Source of the DNA: an uncultured Alphaproteobacteria bacterium
Lineage (GTDB): Bacteria > Pseudomonadota > Alphaproteobacteria > RF32 > CAG-239
Direction: 5' to 3'
DNA: 64,000 bases
NCBI GenBank assembly: GCA_944393665.1
Contig: CALYAX010000006.1
Span: 11,780 to 75,779 of the forward strand
The notes beneath the pieces were generated by a model that searched no databases, was not told the origin of the DNA, and worked only from the letters and a program-made list of their open reading frames with translations. Both the position numbers and the translations under genes were made by a program. Each line of letters opens with the position of its first letter. Position 1 is the stretch's first letter. Below are positions 4,958 to 24,455 of the stretch, in pieces.

Positions 4958-6535
4958 TCAAATGGTCCCATCGTCTAGTGGCCTAGGACATCGCCCTCTC
5001 ACGGCGAGAACAGGAGTTCGAGTCTCCTTGGGATCACCAATTGCAACACCTTCCGATTTGGAGGGTGTTTTTTTATTTAAAGACTGCACCCAATCGAACG
5101 GTTTTCTAAGGTCATACGAAAATTTCTGACCGTCTAATTTAAAGTTCGCAAGTACAATATTTAAAATCGCCCTTTTTGTTTCAACTTGCGAACTCGAGAA
5201 GATATCATAGGCATTGCTTCCCAAAGACAACACCGTTCCCAGAGCAATAGAAAACCGCTCGTCGGCTTGAGTTAAGGAACTCATCTCATCTTCAAGTTTG
5301 TACTGTTCTTCTTTGAGAACGGAACTAATCTCGTTATATTCATCTGCAGATATCCTCTGTTTAGCGTAATCAAGTCTGATATTCTTCAGTCCGTTAACAC
5401 ATTCATCATATTTTTTACGTGCTTTGGCGAGCTGTCTGCGTTGAAATTCACTTTGATTGTCAATAATCCTCTCCATATCAGCCCTAATATAGTGCATAAT
5501 TTCTTCATCAAGATGTAAATTTTTCAAAGTCGTTTTAACTTGGGCTAGTGCAACATCTTCATTGAGCGGCTTTGTTTTGCAATTACCTTTATAATGTGAA
5601 CAACGAAGATAGGTGTATTTCTCTTTTTTTATGTAAGATGTTATGGTGCATCCACAACTGCATTGTATCAGTCCACGAAAGACAAAAGGTCTAGAACCAT
5701 ATTTAAACTGCCGAGCTTTAGCCTTTCCTTTGCCTTTTAATATTCTCTGGCAGTTTTCAAATGTCCTTTCAGTTATCAGCCTTTCATAGATATGAGGCCT
5801 TTCTTTATTTCTAAAAACGGCAATACCGTGATAAAATTTACAATTTAGAATTCTGTAAACTGCACTTGTATTTATTGGGGCGGTATTACTCCTGTTCATA
5901 AATCCCCATTCTTTGCATTTTTGAGTTATCTCACTTATTGAGTAAAGTCCAGTTTCGTAGTATTCAAACAATTTTTTAACCAATGGCGCCCTTTCTTCAT
6001 CAATTATTACATTTGCTCTACCGTCAGGCATTCTGATATTGTTGTAACCTAGTGGAGCTTTACTCATACAATATCCCTTATCTGCTTGGCACTCCATATT
6101 CTCAGTTACATTATCACGCACGCTTAACGCATAGCTTTGTGCCATAACGATATTTATCCCAAGACGGGTTAAGTCATTGCTTTTAGAATCTTTATCTAGG
6201 ATTAGATTTTCTCTAATAAAATGTAGTTCAAGCCTACCTTGTTGCCTAAGCTCATCAATCATTGTGTAGTTTTTAAAATTTCTGAAAATGCGGTCTGTGG
6301 TTATACAAACAAGAGCAACACAAAACCTCTGCTTTTTTATGAAACTTATTGCTTCCATAAACTGTTTACGCTCGCCACGAGTACTACTCTCAACAATTTC
6401 AAAACTATGTATTATCTCAAGACCTCTCTTTTGACAGTACGCTAATGTGCTATCTTTTTGATTTTTAAGAGAAAACCCTTCAAGCTCTTGCATTCTTGTG
6501 CTGACCCTTTGAATGGTAACGGCTTTTTTATACAA
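4958..6535 (-). CDS. Large serine recombinase (integrase); 3' end runs antisense through the tRNA
   Basis: RVST catalytic Ser motif, DRIFR, PLGY recombinase domain, CSCG..YLRC..C zinc ribbon, coiled coil. Confidence 0.93.
   Translation of the reverse strand: MYKKAVTIQRVSTRMQELEGFSLKNQKDSTLAYCQKRGLEIIHSFEIVESSTRGERKQFMEAISFIKKQRFCVALVCITTDRIFRNFKNYTMIDELRQQGRLELHFIRENLILDKDSKSNDLTRLGINIVMAQSYALSVRDNVTENMECQADKGYCMSKAPLGYNNIRMPDGRANVIIDEERAPLVKKLFEYYETGLYSISEITQKCKEWGFMNRSNTAPINTSAVYRILNCKFYHGIAVFRNKERPHIYERLITERTFENCQRILKGKGKAKARQFKYGSRPFVFRGLIQCSCGCTITSYIKKEKYTYLRCSHYKGNCKTKPLNEDVALAQVKTTLKNLHLDEEIMHYIRADMERIIDNQSEFQRRQLAKARKKYDECVNGLKNIRLDYAKQRISADEYNEISSVLKEEQYKLEDEMSSLTQADERFSIALGTVLSLGSNAYDIFSSSQVETKRAILNIVLANFKLDGQKFSYDLRKPFDWVQSLNKKTPSKSEGVAIGDPKETRTPVLAVRGRCPRPLDDGTI
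4964..5039 (+). tRNA. tRNA-Glu (anticodon CTC)
   Basis: GGTCCCA/TGGGATC acceptor stem, TCGCC-CT-CTC-AC-GGCGA anticodon arm, GTTCGA T-loop, encoded CCA; 76 nt. Confidence 0.97.
5045..5074 (+). terminator. Element-supplied terminator for the tRNA
   Basis: AACACCTTCC-gattt-GGAGGGTGTT hairpin followed by a T-run. Confidence 0.75.
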
Positions 6536-7867: not shown

Positions 7868-8620
7868 ATGAAAACTTTTTCAGAAAAATTTGAACAGAAC
7901 GCAAATTTACAATTAAGAAAAGTAACAAGAGCAATCGATTTGTATGTTAAGAATGTTTATATAAAAAGTCGGTTGATACGGTATGTTAGTAGTCAAGCAG
8001 GGTTTGGAATGATGCAACCATTAGCCCTCAAAAACTTTTCGGATGTTGTTTATTCATATTTGGAACCAATTATCGGTAGCGATAACATCTCAATGTTTAC
8101 GGTTGTTGTCGATAAATATAACTTCGGACAGGATAATTGGAATTTTCGATACAAATCATTTCAAAAGAAAATAAAAAAGATTTTTAAAGGATATGATTAT
8201 ATCGCTAATGTTGCTTTAGATGAATTTCCTCGGATATCTTTTCAGCAAGACGGTACTTTGATGACACCGCATATTCACGGAATATTTTTTCGTACATTGA
8301 CACGTTGGGAAAAGTCAAAGTTAGCAAAAGCAATAAAAAAATATTTTCCGGAAAGTCGTATCAGACCATTTGTTGTGAGACCTCAATATGATTTGGAATC
8401 TGCAATTCAATATAGTTTTAAAGCCTTATTTGGCGGGAAAAGAACATTTACGAGAAGAGATTTAACAGTCGGATTAAAAAATACGAGTATGACGTATAAA
8501 GCAATTTATACAAACTTCACTCATCTTAAGCGTTTCAAAATATATGATTTAGCTTTTGCAGGTGGGAAAGGTAAAGAAATTTTACGCAATATTATTAGAG
8601 ACATTGAAAATGGGAGTTAA
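7868..8620 (+). CDS. HUH endonuclease, rolling-circle replication initiator-like
   Basis: FT (motif I-like), PHIHG (HUH) and YSFK (YxxK) in Rep order. Confidence 0.65.
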   Translation: MKTFSEKFEQNANLQLRKVTRAIDLYVKNVYIKSRLIRYVSSQAGFGMMQPLALKNFSDVVYSYLEPIIGSDNISMFTVVVDKYNFGQDNWNFRYKSFQKKIKKIFKGYDYIANVALDEFPRISFQQDGTLMTPHIHGIFFRTLTRWEKSKLAKAIKKYFPESRIRPFVVRPQYDLESAIQYSFKALFGGKRTFTRRDLTVGLKNTSMTYKAIYTNFTHLKRFKIYDLAFAGGKGKEILRNIIRDIENGS

Positions 8621-9165
8621 TTATTCAGGTAATTATACACGGTGCGTCTGGAGATGCCATATTGTTTGGCGATTTGGGTAATCGGTGTGCGATTGGTAAT
8701 GAGCGCTTTTATTTCCTCAACTTGTTGGGCGGTTAGTTTAGGTTGACCGCCTTTATATTTGCCGTGCAGTTTGGCAAGGGCAATTCCCTCTCGTTGGCGT
8801 TCAAGGATTAAATTCCGTTCCAGCTCCGCAACAGCTCCTAACATCGTCATCATCATTTTTTGATAAGGATCTTGTTTGTCGGCGGCAAAAGTCAAATTCT
8901 CCTTGTGAAAAACAATTTTAGCCCCTTTACTGGTTATCTCCTCAACCAAATTTAACAGGTCTTTAGTGTTGCGGGCAAGTCTGTCCATTGAATGAACATT
9001 GATAACATCACCGGCACGAATATTCAGCAACATAGCCTGCAATTCAGGGCGGTCGGTATTTTTACCGCTGATTTTTTCGATATAGGCACGGTCGCACACA
9101 ATATCTAAAAGTTGGCGTTCGGTGTTTTGGTCGGTGGTCGATACTCTCTTGTAATTAAAAATCAT
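8617..9165 (-). CDS. Resolvase/invertase (small serine recombinase)
   Basis: YKRVST.DQ, DRLAR, ERQREGI, C-terminal HTH. Confidence 0.95.
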   Translation of the reverse strand: MIFNYKRVSTTDQNTERQLLDIVCDRAYIEKISGKNTDRPELQAMLLNIRAGDVINVHSMDRLARNTKDLLNLVEEITSKGAKIVFHKENLTFAADKQDPYQKMMMTMLGAVAELERNLILERQREGIALAKLHGKYKGGQPKLTAQQVEEIKALITNRTPITQIAKQYGISRRTVYNYLNN

Positions 9166-10125: not shown

Positions 10126-10474
10126 TTTCTTACCTTTAAAATAAAAAAAGAGCCTCAACACTGGGTTGAAGCTCCGATTGTTAAATTGAGATTGTAAACG
10201 GTTCTAACTGACTTATTTCGAGTTTGTTAGTTAGAAATCGCATATTACACCTCACTTTCAAACATACAAAACCTTTGCTGCCCTTGCTAAAAAACAGCTT
10301 TGTACACGGTTTCATATATTTTGTGATTTATAATAAAAACGAATCGAATCAATTTTTATTATGGTTAAATATAACATATTTCACTAAAAATTGCAAGTAA
10401 AATATTATGAAAAATCAGGCAATTAGTTGATAATTTAGTTGTATAAAAAACAATATATCAGGAGTTTATTACCG

Positions 10475-11351: not shown

Positions 11352-11423
11352 TTTTATTCATCTTTAAAATTATTAATATTATCTGTGAGTCTATAAAAAA
11401 TAACTAAAAATACAAGAATAAAA

Positions 11424-11457
11424 AAATACCCTGCAACCAATCAGCCACAGGGTATTT
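11424..11457. terminator. Intrinsic terminator candidate
   Basis: AAATACCCTG...CAGGGTATTT inverted repeat. Confidence 0.5.
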
Positions 11458-11548
11458 ATATCAGTTGTTAAATATTAAAACTTATATTTAGCGTTAATCA
11501 GTCCGGTGTGGTCTTGGTAATCCTCACGGAATCTATAGCTGTTAATGA

Positions 11549-12046: not shown

Positions 12047-12062
12047 CGTTGAATCCTTTGTG

Positions 12063-12491
12063 TTAGTTGTTAGACAGCATATTTCCAACATCACCCAATC
12101 CAAAGATACAAGATGTTAGAAAATATAGTGGTATGAAAATTATCAGGTATTTTATGATTTTGATTATTCGTTTTCCCCATAAGGTACATAATTCCCAGCG
12201 GTTTGAGAAAAATAATGAGGGTATAAACATAACGATTGCCGTTACTCCACTTGCAACCAACATATTAAATATAAATAATAAGGCATCTGTAACATCTGAC
12301 ATCATCTTAAATGTTTCACTAGTAATCTTATCGCCAAGACTATTGATTTTTAGTCCTAACAATAGAGTTAATATGCCCCAGACAATCGTTAAAATATTCG
12401 TAATCTTTTCGTGTTTGACTTTATCAATGGTTGTTTTCTCTATGCCGACATCTTTAATGAGAATTATTTTTTCTTCTTTGTTCACAGTCAT
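12063..12491 (-). CDS. Membrane protein
   Basis: Three hydrophobic segments; coupled to the upstream ORF. Confidence 0.55.
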   Translation of the reverse strand: MTVNKEEKIILIKDVGIEKTTIDKVKHEKITNILTIVWGILTLLLGLKINSLGDKITSETFKMMSDVTDALLFIFNMLVASGVTAIVMFIPSLFFSNRWELCTLWGKRIIKIIKYLIIFIPLYFLTSCIFGLGDVGNMLSNN

Positions 12492-13120
12492 TGTGCATTC
12501 CTCAATTCTGCTTCAATAGCGGATTGAAATTCACCAATCCAAGATGAAACTTGACAGTTAAATTTGGGTGCAATGTCTCTTATGGCACTGAGTGCTAAGA
12601 ATTCTTCTTGGATAAGGCGATTCATTCCGTAGGAGCGGCTTTCAGTTAGATAACTTTGGTATTCCCAGTTAGCTTCTTCAATATCAGCACAGTTCTTTTT
12701 GTATTTTCCGCTATTTAAGGCTTGTTCATAATTTTGCATATCGCTTATACATAGTTTTTGTGCTTTTTCATTTCCTTTGTAATGCGCATAACAAACAACA
12801 GAGAATGTCTCTGAAAAACTAATGTTTGAGGTTGGTGTAATTGATGGCTCGTTATTGTGCTGAATTACAGAAGCTATCAATAAGCCAAGTGCTAGAATAA
12901 TTGTAATGATTGCACCGATAGCGTAGGCGATATATTTATAGTTTTTATCTTTTTTATAATTAAAAAGACTCCATATAAGTCCTATTGCTGATAGTGAGAT
13001 TGTTCCAAAAATTTGTGATTTTCCCACCAGACCGATAACACTATTTATAATTCCAGCAATAGTTAATATGGCAATTACTGTCGCTATTGCCTCAATTGAT
13101 CCTATAACATATTTCCTCAT
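12488..13120 (-). CDS. Membrane-anchored hypothetical protein
   Basis: Three N-terminal TM segments plus a soluble Cys-containing domain; AGAGGA RBS. Confidence 0.65.
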   Translation of the reverse strand: MRKYVIGSIEAIATVIAILTIAGIINSVIGLVGKSQIFGTISLSAIGLIWSLFNYKKDKNYKYIAYAIGAIITIILALGLLIASVIQHNNEPSITPTSNISFSETFSVVCYAHYKGNEKAQKLCISDMQNYEQALNSGKYKKNCADIEEANWEYQSYLTESRSYGMNRLIQEEFLALSAIRDIAPKFNCQVSSWIGEFQSAIEAELRNAQ

Positions 13121-13202
13121 TTTATCCTCTTTATGAAACTATAGTTGCTGTAACTATAATTACATTTAAATATAGAATGTCAACAGGTAAGTTTGAATTA
13201 TT

Positions 13203-13436
13203 ATGAAAAGAGAATACGCAGAACATATAACCCATAAGGTCGTAGACTTACTTGAAAAAGAAAGGGTTGAAAGAAAAATAACAAAGACCGAAATTAACGA
13301 AAAGACCGGTCTAAGTCGTACTGCGTGGACATTAACTGTTTCAAAAAAGAATAGCCCTACCTTGCGGACACTCTTAATGGTCGCTGATGTTATAGGTGTT
13401 GATTTAAAGCAAATTATTGCTGAAGCTGAAAAGTAG
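13203..13436 (+). CDS. XRE-family HTH regulator
   Basis: Cro/C1-like pattern ..KTGLSRT...NSPTLRTL..VADVIG. Confidence 0.75.
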   Translation: MKREYAEHITHKVVDLLEKERVERKITKTEINEKTGLSRTAWTLTVSKKNSPTLRTLLMVADVIGVDLKQIIAEAEK

Positions 13437-13447
13437 CTTATTACGAT

Positions 13448-13660
13448 ATGAAAAAACTTTTTCTTATATTGATGATTACGTTTTTAACATCATCAGTTCT
13501 AGCAGCTGATAGTCAAACTGTGGTTATGAATACTAAAACATATATCTACCATAACCCAACCTGCAAATGGGCTAAAAAATGCACGAAGAATTGCATCAAA
13601 ACCACCAAACAAAAAGCCCAAACTCAAGGAGCAAGGGCTTGTAAAGTCTGCGGCGGGTAG
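13448..13660 (+). CDS. Secreted small Ada-type metal-binding domain protein
   Basis: Signal peptide; YH..TC....C...A...G.RACKVC. Confidence 0.7.
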   Translation: MKKLFLILMITFLTSSVLAADSQTVVMNTKTYIYHNPTCKWAKKCTKNCIKTTKQKAQTQGARACKVCGG

Positions 13661-13667
13661 GATTTTA

Positions 13668-14951
13668 TTAAACTATTTCTACATTTTTATTTAATGCTTC
13701 CTCTAGTTGTTTTATAAAACTGTTATAAGCTTCAAGGTTAAGTATATGATAATTTTTCTTTAAGTTATTGTACTCTTCTATTAATGAGTAACATTTTTCT
13801 TTACAAGGAAATGATATTTGAAATAATGTAATAGTTAAAAAGACAAATTCTGTAAAAAATATATTCCATTGTTCAAAATTTCTAAAATAACCGTATGGCA
13901 TTTTTAATTTTTTTACAATCTTAGTGTATCTTTGCTCAACTTCATTTTTATATCTACCTTCTATCTTTAACAATATATCGCTATACACATTTGTTAATAC
14001 CATATTTTTACTATAGAAATTCTTAAAATTAATTGCACTTATTTTATCATAAAGCCAAACTATTATTTGCGCTTTTAACTTTTCATTTTCAATATAATCA
14101 ACCATTTGCAATAATATTCCATATGACCAATAATTTGGAGCTAAGTTGTTTAGTAGATCAATATCAATATGTTCTAGTATTTTTGTTGGCTTCAACTTCT
14201 CTAAAAATTCAGTAACCTCTTTTAAATTTTCATCATATCTATAATTATTAAAAATATAATAACAAAGTATATATATTTTTTCCCATTTATTCAAGGTGGA
14301 TGACATAATATCTTGAATGTTACTTTTTTTTGTTGGAAGATTATTTGAAATAGGATAAGTTGTTAATAAATGCAAAGCTTTTATAAAAATATTTTGAGAC
14401 TTGCTAAATTTATCGTCAGTTAATGTTAAGAAATGTCCAAAATTGAATAAGTGTTCAATAAGGAGATATTTTAAATCATTTCTTGATGTTTCTTTCAACC
14501 AAACGTCAAATTCATTAAAAGCATAAATAAGTAAATAATAGAGAAGATATTTAATTCCATACTTATCTTGAAAATATATATTTTCGTGAAACAAAGGAAT
14601 ATGATGAAATAATTCCTTATTTAACTTTGATTCTAATATCCATTTATAAAATTGGATATTAGAATAATGAGGATTATATTCTATCTTGGGAATTTCGGTA
14701 TCAAGTTTTGATATTATTGTTAAAGCATTTTTTTGTACAGCATCTGATAGTATTTGCTGTAATTCTTTATCATTCACATAAGCTAACAATATTGCAACAG
14801 CACAAATATTTTCAAGAGATGAGTTATTATCTAAAAGATGTTGTGCTTTTATTTTCTCAGCTGAACCAACTGTTACTTTTGATAATTCATCTGGCTTCAA
14901 TTCTAAAATATTATTATTTAGCACATCAAAGAATACTTCGTCTTTAATCAT
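13668..14951 (-). CDS. Large helical hypothetical protein (partner of the PLD-like gene)
   Basis: 427 aa, very AT-rich, start overlaps the upstream stop at 14951. Confidence 0.7.
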   Translation of the reverse strand: MIKDEVFFDVLNNNILELKPDELSKVTVGSAEKIKAQHLLDNNSSLENICAVAILLAYVNDKELQQILSDAVQKNALTIISKLDTEIPKIEYNPHYSNIQFYKWILESKLNKELFHHIPLFHENIYFQDKYGIKYLLYYLLIYAFNEFDVWLKETSRNDLKYLLIEHLFNFGHFLTLTDDKFSKSQNIFIKALHLLTTYPISNNLPTKKSNIQDIMSSTLNKWEKIYILCYYIFNNYRYDENLKEVTEFLEKLKPTKILEHIDIDLLNNLAPNYWSYGILLQMVDYIENEKLKAQIIVWLYDKISAINFKNFYSKNMVLTNVYSDILLKIEGRYKNEVEQRYTKIVKKLKMPYGYFRNFEQWNIFFTEFVFLTITLFQISFPCKEKCYSLIEEYNNLKKNYHILNLEAYNSFIKQLEEALNKNVEIV

Positions 14952-16486
14952 TATTCCCCCTCTGGAAACAAGCGATTATCTTCACAACATTTAGAAATTA
15001 ACTCCTCTAAATATTTAGAAGCCAAAATTTTATTTTCTCCATCATATTCAAAAATTGAAATATCGTATCGGGTTAATAAATTATTTAAACTGTTTGTTAA
15101 AGAAAAAACATAGCGGTTTTTTAAGGACTTTATATAAATATATCTATCGTGGAAACATTCTTTAGATAAATTATGCCAAATAAGTCTAGCTGCAGGCAAA
15201 CCGCTTCCTTGAATATTTTTAATCGTTTGAATGGTCTTTTGTTTTATCTTTTCTATTTCCATAATTGAGGAAGATAAATCAGGCTCAGAATCTGGATCCT
15301 TACTCGTCCACGCTGAAATAATTTCAATCTTTATATCATTTTTATTTATTCCCAATATTGGTATAAGTGATTCTTTGGAGATAAAAGGATCAATAAAATA
15401 AATAGTGCTATTGTCATCGACAATACGCTCATTAATATAATTAATAATATCTTGAAGTGTATTCTTGGATTTTGAAAAATATTTTTGCATTGTTTTGTTT
15501 GTATGATTTGTTTTATTTTTTGCCAGCTGATAAATAAGTTGTTGCCGCTCATTTATAATGTTTAATGGGTTTTTTACTGGATATTTTACTTCGGTTTTTA
15601 TTGGACGATTTTCTATTGAAACATTAAGTTCTTTTTCTTCATTTTTACCATATTTGATATTAACACTTCGACCAATCATTCTCATATCCATACTAATCCC
15701 TAATAACCAATGACATTTTTCTGTATGGACAAGTTTGCCATTTTCATCAAATACCCAATATTCATACCCCCCATCATTTATTAAAGGTTTATTAAATGTT
15801 ATTTCTTTTTTTCCTTTGTGGATAATCTGTACTTCATCTAAAAGAATCTCTGAAGTAACTGAAAAAACAGTTAAGTGTATTATATTTTTTACATCACAGA
15901 AGTCCCGTCTAAAAATATACTGATTAGGTTGTTCTTTAGTCGTTCTAATTTTGAAAGGAGGAATATTTTCTATCCATGTTGGCACATCAGCATATTCGTA
16001 GCAACCAACTCTCTTACTATACCCATCTAAGAAATGTTGAGCAGTATCTTTTTCAAGTATATCTAATATCTCTCTAAGTATCTCTTTATTTTCTTCTCGA
16101 AGAAAATATTCATCACGAAAACTAAAGAAATCATCTGTATAATAACTGTGCATTGTTATTGTTGAAGCTACTGGAGAGGATGGAATATCAAAGTCATAAT
16201 GTTTTTTACTTTGAATAATTTCAGAATATTCGTTATATATAACCTCAATAGCTAAGTTATTGTTAATCGAATTAAACTTTATCTTATTATTCTGACAAAA
16301 TTTTTCAGGATGAATATTTATAATGCTGAAAAAAAGATAAATTTCTTCTCCCGAAGATAACCTCCCAATTTTTTGAGGTTTTGAATTCATAGCTACGTTG
16401 TTATCTGTTGGTAAAGATAAACCATACAAAAATATTTGTGATTTATTTTCCTTATTTCCAATAAAGTATAGCCACGAAGCAAACAT
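14951..16486 (-). CDS. VPA1262-like protein with C-terminal PLD-like nuclease domain
   Basis: IYFIDPF...FHDRYIYI...SLTNSLNN motif set. Confidence 0.6.
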   Translation of the reverse strand: MFASWLYFIGNKENKSQIFLYGLSLPTDNNVAMNSKPQKIGRLSSGEEIYLFFSIINIHPEKFCQNNKIKFNSINNNLAIEVIYNEYSEIIQSKKHYDFDIPSSPVASTITMHSYYTDDFFSFRDEYFLREENKEILREILDILEKDTAQHFLDGYSKRVGCYEYADVPTWIENIPPFKIRTTKEQPNQYIFRRDFCDVKNIIHLTVFSVTSEILLDEVQIIHKGKKEITFNKPLINDGGYEYWVFDENGKLVHTEKCHWLLGISMDMRMIGRSVNIKYGKNEEKELNVSIENRPIKTEVKYPVKNPLNIINERQQLIYQLAKNKTNHTNKTMQKYFSKSKNTLQDIINYINERIVDDNSTIYFIDPFISKESLIPILGINKNDIKIEIISAWTSKDPDSEPDLSSSIMEIEKIKQKTIQTIKNIQGSGLPAARLIWHNLSKECFHDRYIYIKSLKNRYVFSLTNSLNNLLTRYDISIFEYDGENKILASKYLEELISKCCEDNRLFPEGE

Positions 16487-16740
16487 CTATTTATCCTTAT
16501 TTAATGAAAATCATTCAACGATTTTACACTCTTGTTAATTGTAAAACAATATTTTATTGTCAATTTATAACGTTTTTTATATAGGAAAATAAAACTTGTT
16601 TCAAAATGATAAATTATATGTCAAAAATCTAAGCACACTTTGCCCAGTCAGGAAAACGACAGGAAATGATATATTAATACAATATATTTGACACGTTATA
16701 CTGAATATGCTTGAATCTTCTCATATTATAAACAATTTGG

Positions 16741-17418
16741 ATGACGGTTATGGTTGTAACACAAAAAGCATTAGAAGAGTTAGATAACGAATTAAGGAAA
16801 CAGAGCAAAGGTAAAAGCCACGTTGTTAAACTTATGGAATATTATGCAAAGTTTAATCTGATAAAAATGATTCCTATGCTTCCTTCAGAAGAAGGTAATC
16901 CGAGATATGAAGTAGAAATTCTATCAAATGAGGATCCTACTCCAGAAATTAATACTAAAGACCCCTGTGTTATGTACTCAATTATTTCATTCAAAAATAA
17001 AAATATGAGACTTTTTCTTCGTGGCATAGATTTTTATTTAGATATAAAATTTAACGAAACTAATGAGAAAAAAGATAATAAAATCGTAAGTGTATTAAAA
17101 AAAGCAGTAAGAAAGAAAAAAGCGATAGATAAAAAGAATAAAGAAACTGGTGAAGGCTTCGATTTCTATTCATCAAAAGTAAGAATTGAAGCAAAAGAAA
17201 TCGCTAATGTTAGGGATTCTTTGAGAATTTTTTTAAAAGAATTCAAATGTAAAGAACTGCTTGATTTATTGTTCTTCAGTAATAAAAGTGAAATTAGTTA
17301 TAAAAAAGAAGTTTATGCTAGTGATTTGAGAAAAGGTAAAATTAAAGAACTAACAATACAAGATATATCTTTCCTCTTTGACCCCAAAAAGAAAAAATGG
17401 ATAGAACAATGCGATTAA
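16741..17418 (+). CDS. Hypothetical basic protein
   Basis: 225 aa ORF near the right end of the element. Confidence 0.6.
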   Translation: MTVMVVTQKALEELDNELRKQSKGKSHVVKLMEYYAKFNLIKMIPMLPSEEGNPRYEVEILSNEDPTPEINTKDPCVMYSIISFKNKNMRLFLRGIDFYLDIKFNETNEKKDNKIVSVLKKAVRKKKAIDKKNKETGEGFDFYSSKVRIEAKEIANVRDSLRIFLKEFKCKELLDLLFFSNKSEISYKKEVYASDLRKGKIKELTIQDISFLFDPKKKKWIEQCD

Positions 17419-17520
17419 GATGCTTTCACGACCTGTTGTAATTCATTGTTGTTTGCACAAAATAAAAGTATCTTCTCATAAGTATCAATTGTCGCATTAT
17501 AGTAAGTTTCTGAGGTCAAA

Positions 17521-17662
17521 AGTTCGCAATTCATTTCAGTCGGTTCACCAATACAAACAGCGCTCTTTTCAGGGCGCTGTTTTGTTATATGGAACACGGC
17601 TTTTGGCGAGTTCGGGTGTTTGACTTTCAAAAATCGCGTTTTGGGAAGTTTTTCCGAACTCG
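17521..17662 (+). repeat. Cassette boundary module copy 1 (includes right att site of the island)
   Basis: AGTTCG-N18-TCACCAAT + CAGCGCTC/GGGCGCTG terminator + CGAGTTCGG..CCGAACTCG inverted repeat. Confidence 0.9.
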
Positions 17663-17760
17663 TTTTGTGATTTTTCTTTATTTTTTAATGCGCCCATTAT
17701 ATTATAATAACAATATATTACAGGGAAAATTTTATAAACAAGCCGTAGAAAGATGAGAAA

Positions 17761-18276
17761 TTGCTTTTAGTTAATATCAATGGTCCGATAAATTCCGGAA
17801 AATCAACAATTTCAAAGTTGTTAGCTCAAACTTTGTCTAATTCTTTATTTATAGAAGTAGATGACTTGCTTTCTGATGAGGAGAAGGATTTGTTGGGCCT
17901 TACGCAATGTGAAGGATGGGCAGAGAGAATTAATAGATTGGCTAAAATAGTAACTCATGAAAAACATATACAGCAATTTGACCATATTATATTTGCATAT
18001 CCAATGACGGAAAAGTTGTTTAAAAAATGGAAACAATGGGAAGATGAAAGTACTAAATTTATTAGCATTACTTTGGCTCCCGATATTGAGGTTTGCGTTA
18101 CTAATCGTGGAAAACGTATTTTGACAGACGAGGAAATTGAGAGAATTAAAGAAATGTATCAAGAAGGTTATCATAACTCAGAATATGCGGATTTGATTAT
18201 TAATAATTCTACACAAGAACCAGAAGAAACACTGCAGCAAGTCACTTCTTTTTTATCAAAGTACATAAAATTTTAA
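17761..18276 (+). CDS. P-loop (shikimate/nucleotide kinase-like) protein
   Basis: INGPINSGKST Walker A; TTG start. Confidence 0.8.
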   Translation: MLLVNINGPINSGKSTISKLLAQTLSNSLFIEVDDLLSDEEKDLLGLTQCEGWAERINRLAKIVTHEKHIQQFDHIIFAYPMTEKLFKKWKQWEDESTKFISITLAPDIEVCVTNRGKRILTDEEIERIKEMYQEGYHNSEYADLIINNSTQEPEETLQQVTSFLSKYIKF

Positions 18277-18303
18277 CATATTTTTATAAAGAGAGAGGTC
18301 AGT

Positions 18304-18771
18304 ATGAAAATCAGAAATTTTGTGAAACAAGATTTGCCTCAAGTTTTAGAACTTTGCCGCGAAGTTAGGCAACATCATATAGATATATTAGGCGGGTACT
18401 TTGCAGAGCAGGATGATTTTTACGAACAACAAGGATTTTTAGAATCTCTTGAGGGTAATAATATGATTGCTTTGGTGGCAGAGGATAATGGTATTATATG
18501 CGGTTATTTGCTGGCGGAGAGAAAAAGTGCACCATATTTGGTAAATTCTAAAGTTATTAATATTGCTAATTTTGGCGTTGCTAAAGCCAGACGCAAGCAA
18601 GGTATTGGCAAGTTGCTAATGGATAAGATATTTGATATATGCAAAAAAGAGGGGGTCGATGAAATCCGCCTCGGTGTGTATAATAAAAATACTGATGCGT
18701 ATCATTTTTATGAAAATTATGGTTTTAAACCATTGGAACAGCGGATAAATATATTGTTGAGCAAAAAATAA
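18304..18771 (+). CDS. GNAT N-acetyltransferase
   Basis: V...RRKQGIGKLLM; N..A.HFYENYGF. Confidence 0.9.
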   Translation: MKIRNFVKQDLPQVLELCREVRQHHIDILGGYFAEQDDFYEQQGFLESLEGNNMIALVAEDNGIICGYLLAERKSAPYLVNSKVINIANFGVAKARRKQGIGKLLMDKIFDICKKEGVDEIRLGVYNKNTDAYHFYENYGFKPLEQRINILLSKK

Positions 18772-18774
18772 AAT

Positions 18775-18916
18775 AGCTCGTAGATTATGAGTTAAGCATT
18801 ACCAATACAAGTAGCGCTCTTTTCAGGGCGCTGTTTTGTTATAGGGAACACGGCTTTCAGCGAGTTCGGGTGTTTGACTTTCAAAAATTGCGGTTTGGGA
18901 AGTTTTTCCGAACTCG
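18775..18916 (+). repeat. Cassette boundary module copy 2
   Basis: AGCTCG-N18-TTACCAAT, then a near-identical ~110 bp to copy 1. Confidence 0.9.
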
Positions 18917-19012
18917 TTTACTAATGTTTCTTTGTTTTACAAGCATTTAATCCTATTGGAATCTCGTTAGGTCTTCGGGATTATCTTTTATCATAAATCA
19001 GATATAAAAAGC

Positions 19013-19447
19013 TTATAATTTTTTGATAAAACAGATAATTCTATTTGCTTCCGTAAAATTCATTGCTTTATGAAATTGAAAACTGTTTTTATTATTTATT
19101 TCGCAATCACTGGCAAATTCACGGCAACCGTTATCTTTTGCCCAAAGCTCACATTCTGCCAGCAGTTCCTTAGCGTAACCTTTGTTGCGATATTCAGGCT
19201 TAACAAAAATTCCCTCCAAATAACCTACAGGGGATGTTTCACTTCCTTCTACATAGTCATATCGTAATTGGCATTGTGCAAAACCTGCCGGAATATCATT
19301 TTCATATTTTATAAAGAATTGCACTTTTTTTGAGGACATAATTTTTGAAAATTCTTCAATCAATTCATTAACTGTATGATTATTCCACATCAAACTGGCT
19401 AAGCTTGCCAGAAGATTTATATCTTTTATTTCTGCTTTTTGTATCAT
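19013..19447 (-). CDS. Aminoglycoside 6'-N-acetyltransferase AAC(6')-I-like GNAT
   Basis: LRYDYVEG..TSPVGYLEGIFV..EYR..G...EFASDC...N..S..FH...F.E. Confidence 0.85.
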   Translation of the reverse strand: MIQKAEIKDINLLASLASLMWNNHTVNELIEEFSKIMSSKKVQFFIKYENDIPAGFAQCQLRYDYVEGSETSPVGYLEGIFVKPEYRNKGYAKELLAECELWAKDNGCREFASDCEINNKNSFQFHKAMNFTEANRIICFIKKL

Positions 19448-19531
19448 ACAAAATCTCCAAGTTTATAAATTTACTTATTACAAAGTTTATACAATATCTG
19501 TTGCAAATTATTTAACAATACTGGTAAATTT

Positions 19532-19671
19532 AGCTCGTAATCCGTGAGTTATGCATCACCAATACAAACGGCGCTCTTTTCAGAGCGCTGTTTTGTTATA
19601 TGGAACACGGCTTTTGGCGAGTTCGGGTGTTTGACTTTCAAAAATCGCGTTTTGGGAAGTTTTTCCGAACT
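19532..19671 (+). repeat. Cassette boundary module copy 3
   Basis: AGCTCG-N18-TCACCAAT, then a near-identical ~110 bp to copy 1. Confidence 0.9.
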
Positions 19672-19750
19672 TATTTTAATTAATGAATTGATTTTTCGAA
19701 CTTTATAATATTATAATGACAGAAAAATCGCTATGGAAGGTTTATAAGGG

Positions 19751-20542
19751 ATGGTTATTAATAAACATAAAGATATCATTATAAATAAATATTCAAATTA
19801 TGATGAAGATAACCGTTTGGTTCGTAACCGTGGTCATAATTTAGAATATTTAACCACCATGCATTATATTCAAAAATTCCTAAAACCCGGACATAAAATA
19901 TTAGAAATTGGTGCGGCAACCGGGCGTTATTCCATTACTTTGGCTAAAATGGGCTATGATGTTACGGCTGTTGACTTAACCCCTAATCATGTTGAAATAA
20001 TGAAAGCCAAAAAGCATAATATGGAAAATTTTAAATGCATGGTCGCGGATGCTTTGGATTTAGGTATGTTTGAAGACAAAACCTTTGATATGGTATTAAA
20101 TCTAGGACCGATGTATCACCTGTTTAATAAAAAAGACAAGCAACAAGCCGTTAATGAAACCATACGCGTAGCAAAAAAAGGCGGAATATGTATGTTTGCC
20201 TATATTCCCTGCGCATCAATTATGACCGGTTTTGGATTGCTTCATAATGGTGCGGCCCACCTAAACAAATTAATGGATAAAGCCGGCCGCTTTAAAGATG
20301 TTCCTGACGAAGTATTTAATTGCTTTTATATAGAAGATTTCAAGAAACTGTTAGCCAAGACCAATACCAAATATATTACAAATGTAGCAACAGACGGGAT
20401 AGCTTACGTTATGAGAGACTATTTGGAACAATTATCCGAAGAAGGTTATCAAACATATTTAAAATGGCATTTTATTACCTGTGAAAGGCCAGACCAACAA
20501 GGATATAGCGCCCACTTGCTCTATATTTGTAAGAAAAAATAA
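19751..20542 (+). CDS. Class I SAM-dependent methyltransferase
   Basis: ILEIGAATGRYS; FDMVLNLGPMYHL. Confidence 0.9.
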   Translation: MVINKHKDIIINKYSNYDEDNRLVRNRGHNLEYLTTMHYIQKFLKPGHKILEIGAATGRYSITLAKMGYDVTAVDLTPNHVEIMKAKKHNMENFKCMVADALDLGMFEDKTFDMVLNLGPMYHLFNKKDKQQAVNETIRVAKKGGICMFAYIPCASIMTGFGLLHNGAAHLNKLMDKAGRFKDVPDEVFNCFYIEDFKKLLAKTNTKYITNVATDGIAYVMRDYLEQLSEEGYQTYLKWHFITCERPDQQGYSAHLLYICKKK

Positions 20543-20565
20543 ATCATAATTTCACAAAGTAACAC

Positions 20566-20630
20566 AACTCGTAAACCGCGGGTTAATTATCGCCAGTACA
20601 AAACAGCACTCTTTTAAGGGGGCTGTTTTT
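20566..20630 (+). repeat. Cassette boundary module copy 4 (partial: arm, tail and terminator only)
   Basis: AACTCG-N18-TCGCCAGT-AC-AAAACAGC..GCTGTTTT; lacks the 52-bp inverted repeat. Confidence 0.75.
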
Positions 20631-20748
20631 GCATTTAAACCAAAATATTATGTGAGGTTTGGCGTTCTGTTTTTAATTGACAATTCAAAATAATAACTTT
20701 ATAAAATAGTCAAATATTGGACTATAATGCAATTATCAAAGGAAATAA

Positions 20749-21201
20749 ATGAAACGAGAAAGTGTCAGAGCGTATGTCAATCAATATTGCCATTTAAGAG
20801 ACGTGCAATATGCGGCGTATAGCCAATGTGCACGCCGGCATAAATTAACAACTAATGAATTGTTTGTTTTGGATATAATCTGGTTTTCGGCAGAGGGGTG
20901 TTTGCAATCGTCTATTTGCGAACGGATGTCGGCAACCAAGCAGACAATCAGCGCAATTATCAAAAAGTTCTCAAAACTGGGATATTTGAGTTTAACAGAA
21001 GCAACAGATGACCGCAGGAACAAGGTTATTCACTTTACACCTGCCGGTTATGAGTATGCGGCTAAAATTATTCCTCCGGCGGCTGATGCTGAAATTGAGG
21101 CCATGGCGGAACTGGCTGACAGAGAAAACATTGCCGAACTTATACGCCTTACAAAATTATTTTCAGATTTGATGAAAGAAAAATTTAACAATCTTAAATA
21201 A
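20749..21201 (+). CDS. MarR-family regulator
   Basis: Q..I......KQTIS..IK.....GY......DRRNK.I.FT..G. Confidence 0.88.
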   Translation: MKRESVRAYVNQYCHLRDVQYAAYSQCARRHKLTTNELFVLDIIWFSAEGCLQSSICERMSATKQTISAIIKKFSKLGYLSLTEATDDRRNKVIHFTPAGYEYAAKIIPPAADAEIEAMAELADRENIAELIRLTKLFSDLMKEKFNNLK

Positions 21202-21214
21202 AAGGGGATTAGAA

Positions 21215-21838
21215 ATGGAACTTTATGAAGCAATTAACAGACGCAGAACAATTCGTGATTTTGAAGACAGAATCATTGATATGGATATTGTAAAGAAAAT
21301 TCTTTCAGCAGGATTAAAAGCTCCGACAAACAATCATCTGAGAGAATGGGAGTTTGTCATTGTCAATGACAAAAAAGAACGCTCAAAAGTCCTTAATTTG
21401 AAAGACATGACCAACCCTGACGAATGTGATAAAATGTTGGACGGTTTTGGAATGACTGATACTGATCAACGGGGGATGTATCATATTGCAATGCCGAAAC
21501 AATTTTCAATGCTTTATAATTCCGGCTGCCTGATTTTACCATTTTTCAAGATGAGAGAACCCTTATTAAAACCGACATCTTTAAGTTCACTCAACGAATT
21601 TGCCTCGATTTGGCTTTGTATAGAAAATATACTTTTGGCGGCAGCGGCCGAAGGAATTTTTGGCGTAACACGTATTCCGATGACAGAAGAACTCGAGCAC
21701 ATAAAAAAAACCGTTTTACACCCGGACGACTATGCTATGCCTTGTTATATCGCTTTAGGATATCCGAGCAATAATGCTAAAATACCCGTGCAAAAAGTTA
21801 TTAATGTCGAAGACAGAATGCATTTTAATCAATGGTAA
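21215..21838 (+). CDS. Nitroreductase-family protein
   Basis: RRTIRDF, APT..H.REWEF, ENILLAA.AEG, IALGYP. Confidence 0.9.
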   Translation: MELYEAINRRRTIRDFEDRIIDMDIVKKILSAGLKAPTNNHLREWEFVIVNDKKERSKVLNLKDMTNPDECDKMLDGFGMTDTDQRGMYHIAMPKQFSMLYNSGCLILPFFKMREPLLKPTSLSSLNEFASIWLCIENILLAAAAEGIFGVTRIPMTEELEHIKKTVLHPDDYAMPCYIALGYPSNNAKIPVQKVINVEDRMHFNQW

Positions 21839-21850
21839 AACTTTTCAGCA

Positions 21851-21883
21851 AAAAAACGGCAGTGATAAAAACTGCCGTTTTTT
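21851..21883. terminator. Bidirectional intrinsic terminator
   Basis: AAAAAACGGCAGT-loop-ACTGCCGTTTTTT between convergent genes. Confidence 0.85.
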
Positions 21884-21927
21884 GATAAGCTAATCATTTT
21901 TTAAGATTAACATTTTCGGGGAGTTTT

Positions 21928-22746
21928 TTAAAACGGAGCCGCATATTGTATGATATCCAGGGCGATTGATTTTGCATAACGGCTTGCCTGATAACGATAA
22001 TCTTCAATTTTATTTTCCTGATCGGCCAGCCGTACTGCAAAAAAGATCTTTTGTGAATTGCGTTCATAAAAACCGATAAACCAGGCGTCTTGAACGAGAT
22101 TATTCTTTATTCCGAGTCCTGTTTTGCCGTAAACTTTCAGGACTGATGTTTCAACCAGCATTATTTTTTTCAACGTTTCGGTTATCTGATTTTCCCCCTC
22201 AAATATTTTTGCAAGGACATTAACCTGCTCTACCGGAGAAATCTGCAAAGATGATTCAATCCAAAAACCTTTCAGTTCTGCCTGATCTGTATTCGTATTC
22301 AATGTCCCTTGCCAATCTGACACATCATGATTTCCATACTGATATTTTTGCAAATATTTTTCTACCGTTTCCGGCGGAATCTTATCTATCAGCGCACGAA
22401 AATACCAGACACAAGAACTTTTGAAAGCTTCCGTCAAATTCATATCTTTGTTCCACAACGGATAGCCGTAAGTTTTCCGGTTCCACTTCATATCTGAATT
22501 TTGCAGCGTAATAATCTGTTCTGATAACGCGATGAAAGAGGAAATAATCTTAAATGTGGAGCAAGGAGAAGAGCGCTTCCGACTTAAAGGGACATTATAA
22601 ATTTTATATTCATTCCCTGCAGGATTAAAAAATACAGCAGTTCCCTGAATATTTTTAAAATATTCCGCAACGTTTATTTCGGTGATTTTTTTATCATCAC
22701 ACGAAAACAGTAAAAATATTAAAACAACTAACCGGAGTAACTTCAT
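21928..22746 (-). CDS. Class D beta-lactamase-like (OXA/YbxI/BlaR sensor fold) lipoprotein
   Basis: STFK, SCV, YGN and KTG motifs; LLFSC lipobox. Confidence 0.8.
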   Translation of the reverse strand: MKLLRLVVLIFLLFSCDDKKITEINVAEYFKNIQGTAVFFNPAGNEYKIYNVPLSRKRSSPCSTFKIISSFIALSEQIITLQNSDMKWNRKTYGYPLWNKDMNLTEAFKSSCVWYFRALIDKIPPETVEKYLQKYQYGNHDVSDWQGTLNTNTDQAELKGFWIESSLQISPVEQVNVLAKIFEGENQITETLKKIMLVETSVLKVYGKTGLGIKNNLVQDAWFIGFYERNSQKIFFAVRLADQENKIEDYRYQASRYAKSIALDIIQYAAPF

Positions 22747-22894
22747 TACGCTTCATCTCTGTTCTGCTTTATGGCAGATATTAGATTAGATCGTTTTTTC
22801 AGTCAACAGAGTTTCAGCTTGTCACTTTGGGAAAACGGCTTGCGCATACTGGGTATTTTGTACGACAATTTTAACAGCCATATTTCTCAACTCA

Positions 22895-23383
22895 TTAAAC
22901 AAGCGAAGCGATTTGAAAACGCAATACTTTTTGCAGCTCTGCCAAGGCGATTTCAACCTGGCAGCCGATTTTTCCGGCACTGAATATAATGGTTGGAAAG
23001 TTTTCCGCACCAGAATCGATTGTGACCATAAACTGTTTTTTCATGCCTAAAGGAGAACAACCGCCGTGAACATAGCCGGTGAGCGGGAAAAGTTCCTTCT
23101 GTTTTATCATTTCAATATTTTTCTCTCCGACGGCAGCGGCAGCTTTTTTCAAATCCAATTCACAGCAGACCGGAAGCATGAAAACATAATGATTTTTTGT
23201 TTTGCCCACTGTTACCAGAGTTTTAAAAACCTGCAGGGGATTTTGCCCCAGAGCGGCGGCAATTTCCTCACCGTTAGTAACCGGCCGGTCCGAATAATCA
23301 TAAGTCCGGTAATTTAATTTCTGCCTGTCAAACAGGCGCATAACATTAGTTTTAACTTCCACGGTCTTTTCCTCCGTTTTCAA
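22895..23383 (-). CDS. ybaK: Cys-tRNA(Pro) deacylase YbaK
   Basis: KTNVMR, VFKTLV, TGYVHGGCSPLGMKK, SAGKIG; TTG start inferred. Confidence 0.85.
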   Translation of the reverse strand: MKTEEKTVEVKTNVMRLFDRQKLNYRTYDYSDRPVTNGEEIAAALGQNPLQVFKTLVTVGKTKNHYVFMLPVCCELDLKKAAAAVGEKNIEMIKQKELFPLTGYVHGGCSPLGMKKQFMVTIDSGAENFPTIIFSAGKIGCQVEIALAELQKVLRFQIASLV

Positions 23384-23489
23384 ATTAAATCCGCCTAACG
23401 CATAATGCAAGAACAAAAATTTATCCCCTTGAAACAAACTAGGTTTTCAATTATAGTTCGGTTATATTTATTAAAGGAAAGCAGGAACA

Positions 23490-24455
23490 ATGGCGGCAGA
23501 GATTTCGGTTATCATCCCGGTATGGAACGGTGAAACATATGTTACCGACGGTTTGACAAGTGTGTTTAAGCAGAGTTTTTCCGATTTGGAGATTATTGCC
23601 GTTAATGACGGCAGCACTGACAAAACCGCGCAGATACTTGAGCAGCTGGCTGCTCGGGAACCGCGGCTGAAAGTTCTGCATCAGCCCAATCAGGGTGCAG
23701 CGGCAGCACGCAATTATGGCCTGGACAATGCCGGCGGAAAATATGTCTTTTTTCTGGACAGCGACGATTATTTACATCCCCAGGCCTTGGAAATTCTTCA
23801 TGACATCATGATCAGATTTAAAGTCCCCGCCGTTGAATGCCGGTTTCTGGATATTGAGGACAGGGCCGACCTTGTTCAAACCTCACCGCTCAGTTCCGCA
23901 AACTGCCAGTTGATCGAGGCGCCGCTAGCCTCTCTGTTGGAAAGAAGCAAAAAATTCACCCCGACAATCTGGAATAAATTATATCTGCGTTCAGCTATCG
24001 GGGATTTGCGTTTTCCGCCGTGCCGGATTTTTGAAGATGCGGCTTTTGCTGTTTGTCTGAGTGCCAAAATCAAGACAGCTGCTTTTACCGGCCTGCCGCT
24101 GATTCATTATTATGTCGGCAACACATCGCTGACGAGGGGAAAATTTAAAGCAGAAAATCTGGAGGCTTATGACCGGGGTTTCCGCTATATAACCCAATTT
24201 TTCAGCACTCATTTTCCGGATTTGCTGTCCCAAGTCAGACGGCGCTATATCAGCTGGTATGTGCGCGTGATGATTAATGCCGTCAGGAAAAGCCGCGGCA
24301 AACAGGATGACTATCCGGAACTGGAGCGCAAACTTTCCCGCCATATATACCAGCTTTTTCATGACGGCATTATCGGGCTGTGCGGGCTGACCTGGAGCAA
24401 GAAACTGCAATTCATAAAGTTTTTAATTAAAGGAAAATATTATGGAAAAAATTAA
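23490..24455 (+). CDS. Glycosyltransferase family 2
   Basis: ISVIIPVWN, VNDGSTD, ARNYG, FLDSDD. Confidence 0.92.
   Translation: MAAEISVIIPVWNGETYVTDGLTSVFKQSFSDLEIIAVNDGSTDKTAQILEQLAAREPRLKVLHQPNQGAAAARNYGLDNAGGKYVFFLDSDDYLHPQALEILHDIMIRFKVPAVECRFLDIEDRADLVQTSPLSSANCQLIEAPLASLLERSKKFTPTIWNKLYLRSAIGDLRFPPCRIFEDAAFAVCLSAKIKTAAFTGLPLIHYYVGNTSLTRGKFKAENLEAYDRGFRYITQFFSTHFPDLLSQVRRRYISWYVRVMINAVRKSRGKQDDYPELERKLSRHIYQLFHDGIIGLCGLTWSKKLQFIKFLIKGKYYGKN

Follow-up and report, generated by a model that had tools for sequence, protein, structure and literature searches.

The subject of this report is an array of small gene cassettes downstream of a glutamate transfer RNA gene, tRNA-Glu(CTC), in an uncultured Alphaproteobacteria bacterium. 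The array lies in a window of 64,000 nt, which corresponds to contig C6:11780-75779 of a 1.74-Mb assembly in 42 contigs; coordinates without a contig name are positions in this window. We found that the array and its counterparts in related genomes are built of discrete units with exact boundaries. These units occur as presence/absence variants, their cargo turns over, one cassette is common to both tRNA-Glu genes, and the arm that ends a unit is offset by 5 nt from the corresponding arm of the tRNA. We consider it probable that the array grew by the accretion of miniature, recombinase-less cassettes at tRNA-Glu, and that the enzyme moving such cassettes, in trans, is a large serine recombinase (LSR) specific for tRNA-Glu. 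The parts of the array are these:

4964..5039, plus strand: tRNA-Glu(CTC), called by ARAGORN; its T-arm and acceptor end would form the left arm of attB, with GTTCG 14 nt before CACCA.
5033..5041, plus strand: core ATCACCAAT at the tRNA end, read from the sequence and the site of contig joints.
5042..17552, plus strand: low-GC island, an autonomous element of 12,511 bp, delimited by its GC content, its precise absence from sequencing run X3 and its unit length.
17553..18806, plus strand: cassette 1, 1254 bp, with a terminator (17555-17582), an inverted repeat (17607-17662) and an end arm (18775-18806).
17761-18276 and 18304-18771: cargo of cassette 1, an SKI/AAA_18-like P-loop kinase and a GNAT protein, respectively (Pfam).
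18807..19563, plus strand: cassette 2, 757 bp, composed of the module described below and an aminoglycoside 6'-N-acetyltransferase (AAC(6')) gene.
19013-19447, minus strand: cargo of cassette 2, a GNAT protein matching NCBIfam NF043067 (aminoglycoside 6'-N-acetyltransferase) with 193 bits at a cut-off of 140.
19564..20597, plus strand: cassette 3, 1034 bp, with a terminator (19566-19593), an inverted repeat and a degenerate end arm, TCGCCAGT.
19751-20542: cargo of cassette 3, an S-adenosylmethionine (SAM) methyltransferase (Pfam).
20598..20640, plus strand: native flank (B'), the old tRNA terminator without the inverted-repeat half.

The tRNA gene ends in ...GGGATCACCA followed by AT, and TCACCAAT occupies 5034-5041. 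The array does not touch the tRNA in this genome because the 12,511-bp LSR island stands in between. From 5042 to about 23000 the G+C content is 25-38%, as against about 50%. The native flank at 20598-20640 is similar to the sequence that directly follows tRNA-Glu(CTC) in a related locus (L086). Unit length was taken as the distance between successive CACCAAT ends, and a domain search of the open reading frames (ORFs) in the three window units found no recombinase gene.

Each unit opens with a recurrent boundary module. A repeat finder located three copies of 146 nt, at 17520-17665, 18774-18919 and 19531-19676, with 84%, 100% and 88% identity to the reference copy and spacings of 1254 and 757. 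Pairwise identity is 97% across 122 nt, and values within an array range from 88 to 97% over 120-146 nt. The fourth copy, at about 20566-20640, is partial and comprises the first half, namely the arm, TCGCCAGT and the terminator. Read from left to right, the module consists of an arm, AG[CT]TCG-N19-CACCAAT; ACAAAC with a strong terminator; a T-rich stretch; and an inverted repeat. Terminator-like hairpins are found at 17555-17582, which folds at z = -7.8, and at 19566-19593. The inverted repeat has 9-bp arms (GAGTTCGG.. / ..CCGAACTC) flanking about 38 nt, for a total of 54-57 nt. An earlier note on this DNA, made from its letters alone, had described much of this arrangement. Its module positions (about 17521, 18775, 19532 and, in part, 20566) agree with the repeat finder and the sequence; its unit lengths of 1254, 757 and 1034 bp are those we measured; the copy of the repeated tail that it placed at 5034-41 is indeed the end of tRNA-Glu(CTC); and Pfam and NCBIfam bear out the unrelated cargo that it read in the units (kinase plus GNAT; an AAC(6')-like gene on the opposite strand; SAM methyltransferase) as well as the lack of a recombinase. 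Its inverted repeat of 52 bp was roughly right.

Across 61 distinct module copies, conservation is strong in the T-rich stretch and in the inverted repeat. The three window copies of the repeat fold with z-scores of -2.5, -2.4 and -1.2. A selected hairpin was considered and rejected, as the covariation of the stem (0.126, with 78.5% of cells pairing) equals that of shuffled alignments (0.123; 183 of 500 shuffles reach 0.126). Because the stem shows no compensatory change beyond the shuffles, we read the dyad as a conserved element recognised by its sequence and not as a hairpin. From GTTCG to CGAAC it measures 50 bp by our own count, the size of an attP, and we would guess that it may be an accessory LSR-binding site. 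A dyad resembling the cassette repeat also lies inside the coding region of the island's LSR (5139-5196; fold z = -4.45), and one that looks homologous is found within an LSR gene at tRNA-Leu. Further, the left part of the module is closely similar to the last codons of a second LSR clade (clade B), which is about 33% identical to the window LSR and likewise occurs at tRNA-Glu(TTC) in three genomes (G062, G003 and G002). In their sequence, the cassettes look like islands stripped down to both ends.

The boundaries of the cassettes recur with the same precision in relatives. We delimited 53 units, whose ends read ...AGCATCACCAAT followed by the next module or by a species-specific flank, and identity between units stops at CACCAAT. 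Cassettes range from about 0.7 to 1.5 kb. The cargo of units up to 3.5 kb long, counted as ORFs of 60 aa or more, comes to 80 ORFs in 73 clusters, and hardly any of it recurs. There are 62 ORFs of at least 100 aa, 48 directed away from the tRNA and 14 towards it. Their Pfam families include GNAT (8), the P-loop kinases AAA_18 (4), AAA_33 (3) and Zeta-toxin-like (2), HAD (3) and HD (2), in addition to an EcoRV endonuclease, a D12 methylase, one resolvase, one rve transposase, a GDSL lipase, an M20 peptidase and a hexapeptide acetyltransferase. Turnover is seen in four close species (loci L055, L058, L053 and L049) with flanks 94-96% identical: four unrelated cargos stand between identical boundaries, in an interval that runs from tRNA-Glu(CTC) to a crcB-like gene (named from its translation by eye). 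In these same loci, at about 278-800 in tRNA orientation, one to three tandem "empty" units of about 178 nt, each a copy of the native flank plus CTGGGATCACCAAT, directly follow tRNA-Glu(CTC). Movement between the two tRNA-Glu genes is suggested by one cassette that is 94.9% identical over 680 bp in the CTC array of one species (G021) and the TTC array of another (G026). Its identity stops at the core, its right flanks are unrelated, and the orthologous tRNA flanks of the two genomes are 82-85% identical with nothing else aligning.

The same units are polymorphic in public sequence data. Part of 16800-21200 is present in twenty public runs. We compared the contigs of four, each from a different study, with 4500-23500. 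In a contig of run X3, position 5033 is joined to 17545, with 12,511 bp skipped and 8 letters shared at the joint, so that the tRNA meets cassette 1 and the island is absent. In contigs of X4 and X5, from two further studies, 5032 is joined to 19555, with 14,522 bp skipped and 9 letters shared; here the tRNA meets cassette 3, and the island is absent together with cassettes 1 and 2. The X5 contig shows no difference over 19555-21782, including the two positions that separate the cassette-3 from the cassette-1 terminator. Thus, a switch of the assembly graph within the shared part of the module is not the explanation. The polymorphism rests on three contigs with depths of 3-10, a basis that is thin but exact; two other joints (8194 to 17131 and 15350 to 19787), with sides of 21-24 letters, were too weak and were not used. 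The three forms, tRNA-cassette 3, tRNA-cassettes 1 to 3 and tRNA-island-cassettes 1 to 3, may equally reflect serial insertion at the tRNA or excision of tRNA-proximal blocks.

The module belongs to a family of bacteria rather than to this genome. A DNA search found it in 26 of the 36 other genomes of the genus and in none of 24 genomes from 24 other families of the class. In a sample of the order, 121 of 139 genomes from the family of this bacterium had a match to a module profile (E <=1e-6), and the one genome examined from the order's other family had none. Many matches in this sample are near full length, and several genomes hold at least three copies about 1 kb apart. A profile named R1 matched 56 of 56 genus genomes; its model includes the tRNA-Glu end itself, which inflates this count, and for the genus we rely on the DNA search and on the survey of loci below. 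The related loci derive from uncultured gut Alphaproteobacteria. In six of them the module directly adjoins the 3' end of a genuine tRNA-Glu, of the CTC type in L004, L005, L007 and L011 and of the TTC type in L009 and L012. These loci, and the contig joints that bring the tRNA to cassette 1 or 3, agree with the outward stacking at the tRNA-Glu 3' end that the earlier note had envisaged.

We surveyed 92 of the 103 tRNA-Glu places in 56 genus genomes for up to 10 kb downstream, leaving out 11 that were at contig edges or partial.

tRNA-Glu(CTC): 44 loci with at least 1 kb downstream, 24 with module parts, 16 with at least one complete cassette.
tRNA-Glu(TTC): 37 loci with at least 1 kb downstream, 30 with module parts, 16 with at least one complete cassette.

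Surveyed loci without the module are empty or have an LSR island directly behind the tRNA. Modules apparently away from tRNA-Glu (G005:C4, G018:C24, G013:C5, G030:C11 and G034:C5, not all of which could be placed) lie near a contig start or end, or behind larger units. We also observed that ten minus-strand copies of tRNA-Glu have a contig start within about 500 nt on their downstream side; arrays probably break metagenome assemblies behind tRNA-Glu. A scan of metagenomes with an 18-nt arm pattern matched 100 stretches, 80 of which were retrieved as loci. Among these 80, 42 have the dyad module in addition to the arm and 18 have tRNA-Glu, and arrays reach up to five modules (L155); the others probably matched by chance, the pattern being short and the collection very large. 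The cassette-arm pattern had no match in viral contigs, a result with no bearing on whether phages serve as vehicles. As to the native surroundings of the other gene, the flank of tRNA-Glu(TTC), in loci such as L119, L127, L096 and L097, forms a long palindrome around the terminator. ACCAATACAAAAA and TTTTTGTATTGGT are paired in it, so that the core is repeated in inverted form about 45 nt downstream.

The geometry of the ends fits an LSR. Of 63 ends of cassettes and islands, 42 have the motif G[CT]TCG, always at a distance of exactly 19 nt from CACCA, which it precedes, and it occurs at no other spacing in any end; the remaining 21 lack the strict motif or the core pattern, most of them showing by eye a one-letter variant at the same place. 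In the tRNA, the T-loop sequence GTTC[GA] stands 14 nt before CACCA in 91 of 92 tRNA-Glu copies. For LSRs, Rutherford et al. 2013 (PMC3783163) assign the zinc-ribbon motif of attP to half-site positions 16-24 and that of attB to a place 5 bp nearer the centre. The offset of the left arms, N19 as against N14, is 5 nt, and thus equals the difference between attP and attB given in that paper.

An enzyme of this type lies in the island, with a smaller relative:

4958..6535, minus strand: LSR, 525 codons, with the domains PF00239 (Resolvase), PF07508 (Recombinase) and PF13408 (zinc-ribbon).
8617..9165, minus strand: small serine recombinase (resolvase/invertase) of 182 aa, with Pfam Resolvase (E 5e-37) and HTH_7.

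The LSR also matches a PHROG integrase (E 1.3e-56). Its full domain set and its position beside the attachment site are features of the island only; the cassettes carry none. The right end of the island is a GTTCG-N19-CACCAAT arm at 17521-17552, with the same geometry as in the cassettes. Searches of the other island ORFs with Pfam, PHROGs and PADLOC gave, beyond both recombinases, only one family of unknown function. The reading frame of the LSR extends through the core into the antisense strand of tRNA-Glu (4958-5041), so that its last ~27 codons would change upon excision; four orthologues have a TGA within the aligned C-terminal stretch in place of the read-through. The island itself varies: 741 bp at 10680-11420 are absent from its relatives in X3 and X5, and in X5 the segment 8611-9279, including the small resolvase gene, is swapped for 762 other letters.

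LSRs of this genome adjoin tRNA-Glu, tRNA-His and tRNA-Leu(CAG), and a small resolvase lies 2-3 kb from each of them. The latter two are paralogues of the window LSR and 36-41% identical:

C21:24288-25846: LSR paralogue, tail to tail with tRNA-His.
C27:7104-8647: LSR paralogue, tail to tail with tRNA-Leu(CAG).

A tRNA gene, for Glu, His, Asp, Thr, Leu, Gln or Lys, is found at the LSR 3' end in 25 of 32 LSR loci, drawn from the genus and from other gut Alphaproteobacteria (L015-L046). These proteins therefore form a clade of tRNA-targeting LSRs.

From these elements, we propose the following mechanism. A cassette has the conserved module on its left (terminator, T-rich stretch and 50-bp GTTCG...CGAAC dyad), one or two cargo genes in the middle, together with promoter-like sites of their own, and an arm of about 32 nt, AG[CT]TCG-N19-CACCAAT, at its right end. 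Recombination would take place within the 9-nt core ATCACCAAT, which is common to the cassette end and to the acceptor/CCA end of the tRNA; by the numbering of Rutherford, we would place the crossover on the CA in AT-CA-CCAAT. An exchange inside the core would keep the tRNA intact, supply a fresh terminator and displace older units outward. The enzyme would most likely be a tRNA-Glu-specific LSR acting in trans from sibling islands like 5042-17552, which have the same core and arm geometry as the cassettes and stand in tandem with them. If site identity were set by the left arm alone, the junction of tRNA and cassette would be attB-like and the distal junction attP-like, a hypothesis that would explain both stacking and tRNA-proximal deletions. 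We infer that an LSR acts on the cassettes, that these pass through circles, and that the tRNA junction then serves as attB again. The earlier note had proposed minimal circles inserting at the tRNA end and their mobilisation in trans by the LSR at 4958-6535. Units bounded at the tail core are what we found, and circles were not seen; likewise, the island does have the same 8-nt core and is precisely absent in X3, and the action of its enzyme on cassettes is the inferred part of that proposal.

Several observations weigh against trans mobilisation by an LSR. The right arm shows no mirrored motif and is variable in sequence between species, unlike a textbook attP/attB pair. No circle junction appears among the joints in the contigs of the four runs, although contigs are not expected to show circles. 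Among the 55 other genomes of the genus, only 4 have a close orthologue of the window LSR (52-54% identity), with one fragment besides, and one genome (G006) that is 100% complete by marker genes has three modules and no match to the Resolvase family. The arms of cassettes (class AGCTCGTAAAC.GTGAG.TAAGCAT) differ from those of islands with the window-type LSR (AAGTTCGA.ATTC.TTGCG...). Finally, the loss of cassettes 1 and 2 could have come about by homologous recombination between modules. From the difference in arms, it follows that the cognate LSR may be of another clade. In this regard, a short contig (L036) joins a cassette-type arm to the left end of a clade-B LSR, either as a tandem junction or as the attP of that element; we looked for the right end of a clade-B island and did not find it.

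The alternative that survives best holds that the units are fossil scars, that is, decayed autonomous LSR islands whose recombinase was deleted, so that they record serial integrations and are no longer mobile. A second array in the same genome lends this some substance. In a profile search of the 1.74-Mb genome, full module copies were found only in the C6 array and at C7:34368 and C7:35110, with a partial copy at C7:36322. The C7 array, with one GNAT and one 328-aa protein without a family match as cargo, lies 12.7 kb downstream of tRNA-Glu(TTC); both arrays are thus about 12.5 kb behind a tRNA-Glu, with island sequence intervening. On C7, this stretch opens with a left end homologous to that of the C6 island and contains two broken LSR remnants and an internal junction (L014, about 4035) between a degenerate arm and the left end of a second island; the stretch is therefore a tandem of two decayed islands. 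Further, where the module is T-rich and carries the inverted repeat, it resembles the 3' end of LSR genes, and the cognate LSR is missing from most genomes that bear arrays. Decay does not readily yield units of uniformly small size, however, nor the retention of both ends and the module in 121 of 139 family genomes and the strong conservation of 61 distinct copies. A near-identical cassette at different tRNA-Glu genes of two species, and cargo that differs between close species, also speak against immobility. We regard fossil scars as an unlikely account of the arrays.

Two further alternatives dispense with an LSR altogether. One is exchange by homology, in which the modules and the tRNA would serve as portable arms for RecA-type swapping after DNA uptake, with no dedicated recombinase. 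The 88-97% identity of modules within an array would permit this; the missing cassettes 1 and 2 of X4 and X5 are consistent with it; and the left end of the cassette in L058 is a hybrid of a native-type terminator and the module. The absence of the island in X3, on the other hand, cannot be due to homologous recombination, since merely 8 letters are common to the two sides. Nor does homology explain why the right flanks of the cassette common to G021 and G026 are unrelated, with identity ending at the core, or why terminal cassettes meet species-specific flanks exactly at CACCAAT. We judge this explanation improbable.

The other is that the host's XerC/XerD or an unrecognised enzyme moves the cassettes, and that LSR islands merely share the hot spot. 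Two tyrosine recombinases (PF00589), of 313 and 334 aa and thus of Xer-like size, are encoded in the whole genome, on contigs C1 and C13; two such Xer-like proteins are the sole site-specific recombinases common to all six genomes checked, and arrays do exist in genomes without any LSR. Both lie far from the arrays, and the array contigs hold no PF00589 match. A scripted search for the dif site of the genome gave nothing and is uninformative on this point. The junctions, for their part, lack a dyad of two 11-bp arms around a 6-8-bp spacer, and the core and N19 arm geometry are shared between cassettes and islands. We give the involvement of another recombinase little credence.

The notion that the module is an ordinary repetitive element (REP or MITE) or a regulatory leader between genes is scarcely tenable, for although it contains a terminator and a conserved inverted repeat, its full copies are confined to the two tRNA-Glu arrays of the genome and in relatives lie behind tRNA-Glu, it has no Rfam match, and its stem covaries no more than shuffles do. 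A scatter of the module across the genome, which would have counted against the earlier note, is contradicted by the profile search, which found beyond the tRNA-Glu arrays only weak relatives at tRNA-Trp. The Rfam scan, over 16500-21500 at E <=1, returned only a chance snoRNA (24 bits against a gathering score of 45). A sigma-70 scan found 7 promoter-like sites where 15.5 were expected and is uninformative apart from a site at 19688-19717, which matches at 10 of 12 positions and lies upstream of the methyltransferase gene.

The weak relatives deserve mention in their own right. Two of them lie behind tRNA-Trp(CCA), at C26:1942-4400, around three cargo genes. They have the same architecture of terminator and T-rich stretch with another dyad, GAGTCCGTGT...ACACGGACT; the second junction reads CCCTGTCA, and the tRNA-Trp itself reads CCCTGCCA. 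From its sequence, this locus looks like a parallel array at another tRNA.

If the arrays are taken together with the trans-acting LSR that we favour, a broader proposal can be put forward, for which we claim no more than a tentative standing. The system would be a serine-recombinase counterpart of the integron, with the tRNA-Glu 3' end as the fixed capture site, one LSR that both inserts at the tRNA and excises tRNA-proximal blocks without a directionality factor, a dyad that acts as an accessory LSR-binding site, and parallel systems at tRNA-Trp and other tRNAs. As the zinc-ribbon motif is borne by the left arms only, every insertion would restore a working attB at the tRNA, with an attP-like site remaining at the distal end. 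Its cassettes, of about 1 kb, would carry a two-part site made of a tRNA-mimicking arm and a terminator-plus-dyad module.

Such a system would matter in several respects. If an LSR moves the cassettes, arrayed gene capture is not confined to the integrons and their tyrosine recombinases, and throughout a family of uncultured gut Alphaproteobacteria this task would fall to a platform based on a serine recombinase. The cargo consists of enzymes that modify small molecules, among them an AAC(6') gene above the NCBI curated threshold. We note that this cassette-2 gene is of the resistance type (group E), is putatively mobile, and belongs to a gut commensal of chicken and bovine gut metagenomes. 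Further, the LSRs constitute a natural set with defined tRNA targets (Glu, His, Leu, Asp, Thr, Gln and Lys) in which the 5-bp attP/attB rule can be read in plain sequence, and they should be useful for understanding and choosing serine integrases. Among neighbouring features, the host part of the window has G+C-rich tandem repeats at 35115-35335, 48540-48721, 61924-62340 and 33376-33496, which include a 37-nt repeat (x5), a 91-nt repeat (x2), a 120-nt spacing (x3) and a repeat of about 38 nt (x3).

One of the closest published parallels is in Dehalococcoides. McMurdie et al. 2011 (PMC3146451) describe ssrA islands (DsiB/DsiA) arranged in tandem behind a tRNA-like gene, with copies of the gene's 3' end as their boundaries. 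On the reverse strand beside attL, these islands carry an integration module with a serine recombinase of about 540 aa and a small one of about 200 aa. The paper suggests that units without this module are cis-mobilizable elements. The earlier note's remark that it did not recognise a described system was accordingly too strong, as both tandem LSR islands and recombinase-less, cis-mobilizable elements at tRNA or transfer-messenger RNA (tmRNA) genes appear in that paper. The two recombinases of the integration module have their counterparts here in 4958-6535 and 8617-9165. The differences from the islands as there described are the target (tRNA-Glu, or other tRNAs for the paralogues, instead of tmRNA), the core (9 nt instead of 20 bp) and the scale (single-gene cassettes of about 1 kb with a conserved end module of about 150 nt instead of islands of 10-30 kb). 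The tmRNA gene of our genome is on contig C15, away from the arrays, and the hosts here are a family of gut Alphaproteobacteria, unlike Dehalococcoides.

Tycheposons of Prochlorococcus are likewise cargo elements at tRNA genes in which newer arrivals push older ones outward, and remnants and partial tRNAs accumulate in their islands. According to their description (bioRxiv 10.1101/2020.12.28.424599), 910 of 937 elements use tyrosine recombinases. As portrayed there, they carry their own integrase and replication modules, and their boundaries are partial tRNA copies, whereas those of the cassettes are a 9-nt core and a mimic arm.

With integrons, the arrays share mostly single-gene, recombinase-less cassettes, very diverse cargo that includes GNAT and AAC(6')-type proteins, and a single proximal insertion site. 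They differ in that no IntI or other tyrosine recombinase lies on the array contigs, the insertion site is a tRNA end, and each cassette opens with a terminator and has promoter-like sites of its own. The attC site, an imperfect palindrome that acts as a folded single strand, has an AAC 5' arm and a GTT 3' arm, whereas the dyad here has a GTTCG 5' arm and a CGAAC 3' arm, and its stem is without pairing covariation. The Rfam scan gave no attC match, although whether Rfam holds an attC model was not checked. Lacking IntI and attC, the array does not fall under the definition of an integron.

Staphylococcal cassette chromosome (SCC) and pseudo-SCC elements at rlmH are stacked by LSRs (CcrAB/CcrC) at the 3' end of a housekeeping gene, and some of their units depend on Ccr in trans. 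The arrays described here resemble them in LSR-type stacking at the 3' end of one gene and in having recombinase-less units. The target gene and the LSR family are different, the NCBIfam model for CcrB giving 53.7 bits against a cut-off of 900, and SCC units are many kb long. We know of no conserved internal dyad module in SCC. Cis-mobilizable elements (CIMEs) related to streptococcal integrative and conjugative elements have been described with tyrosine integrases and as few, large units. As with the cassettes, the att sites on either side of them are those of an autonomous relative, beside which they stand in tandem at its target, and they encode no recombinase; what sets the present case apart is that the mini-cassettes are uniform and form arrays throughout a family. 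The CIME concept is also cited in the Dehalococcoides report (PMC3146451), which mentions SCC as well. In the literature searched, we found no description of an LSR-driven array of single-gene cassettes at a tRNA. Thus, what is known is cis-mobilizable accretion by a serine integrase, and what is new is its miniature, integron-like and family-wide form.

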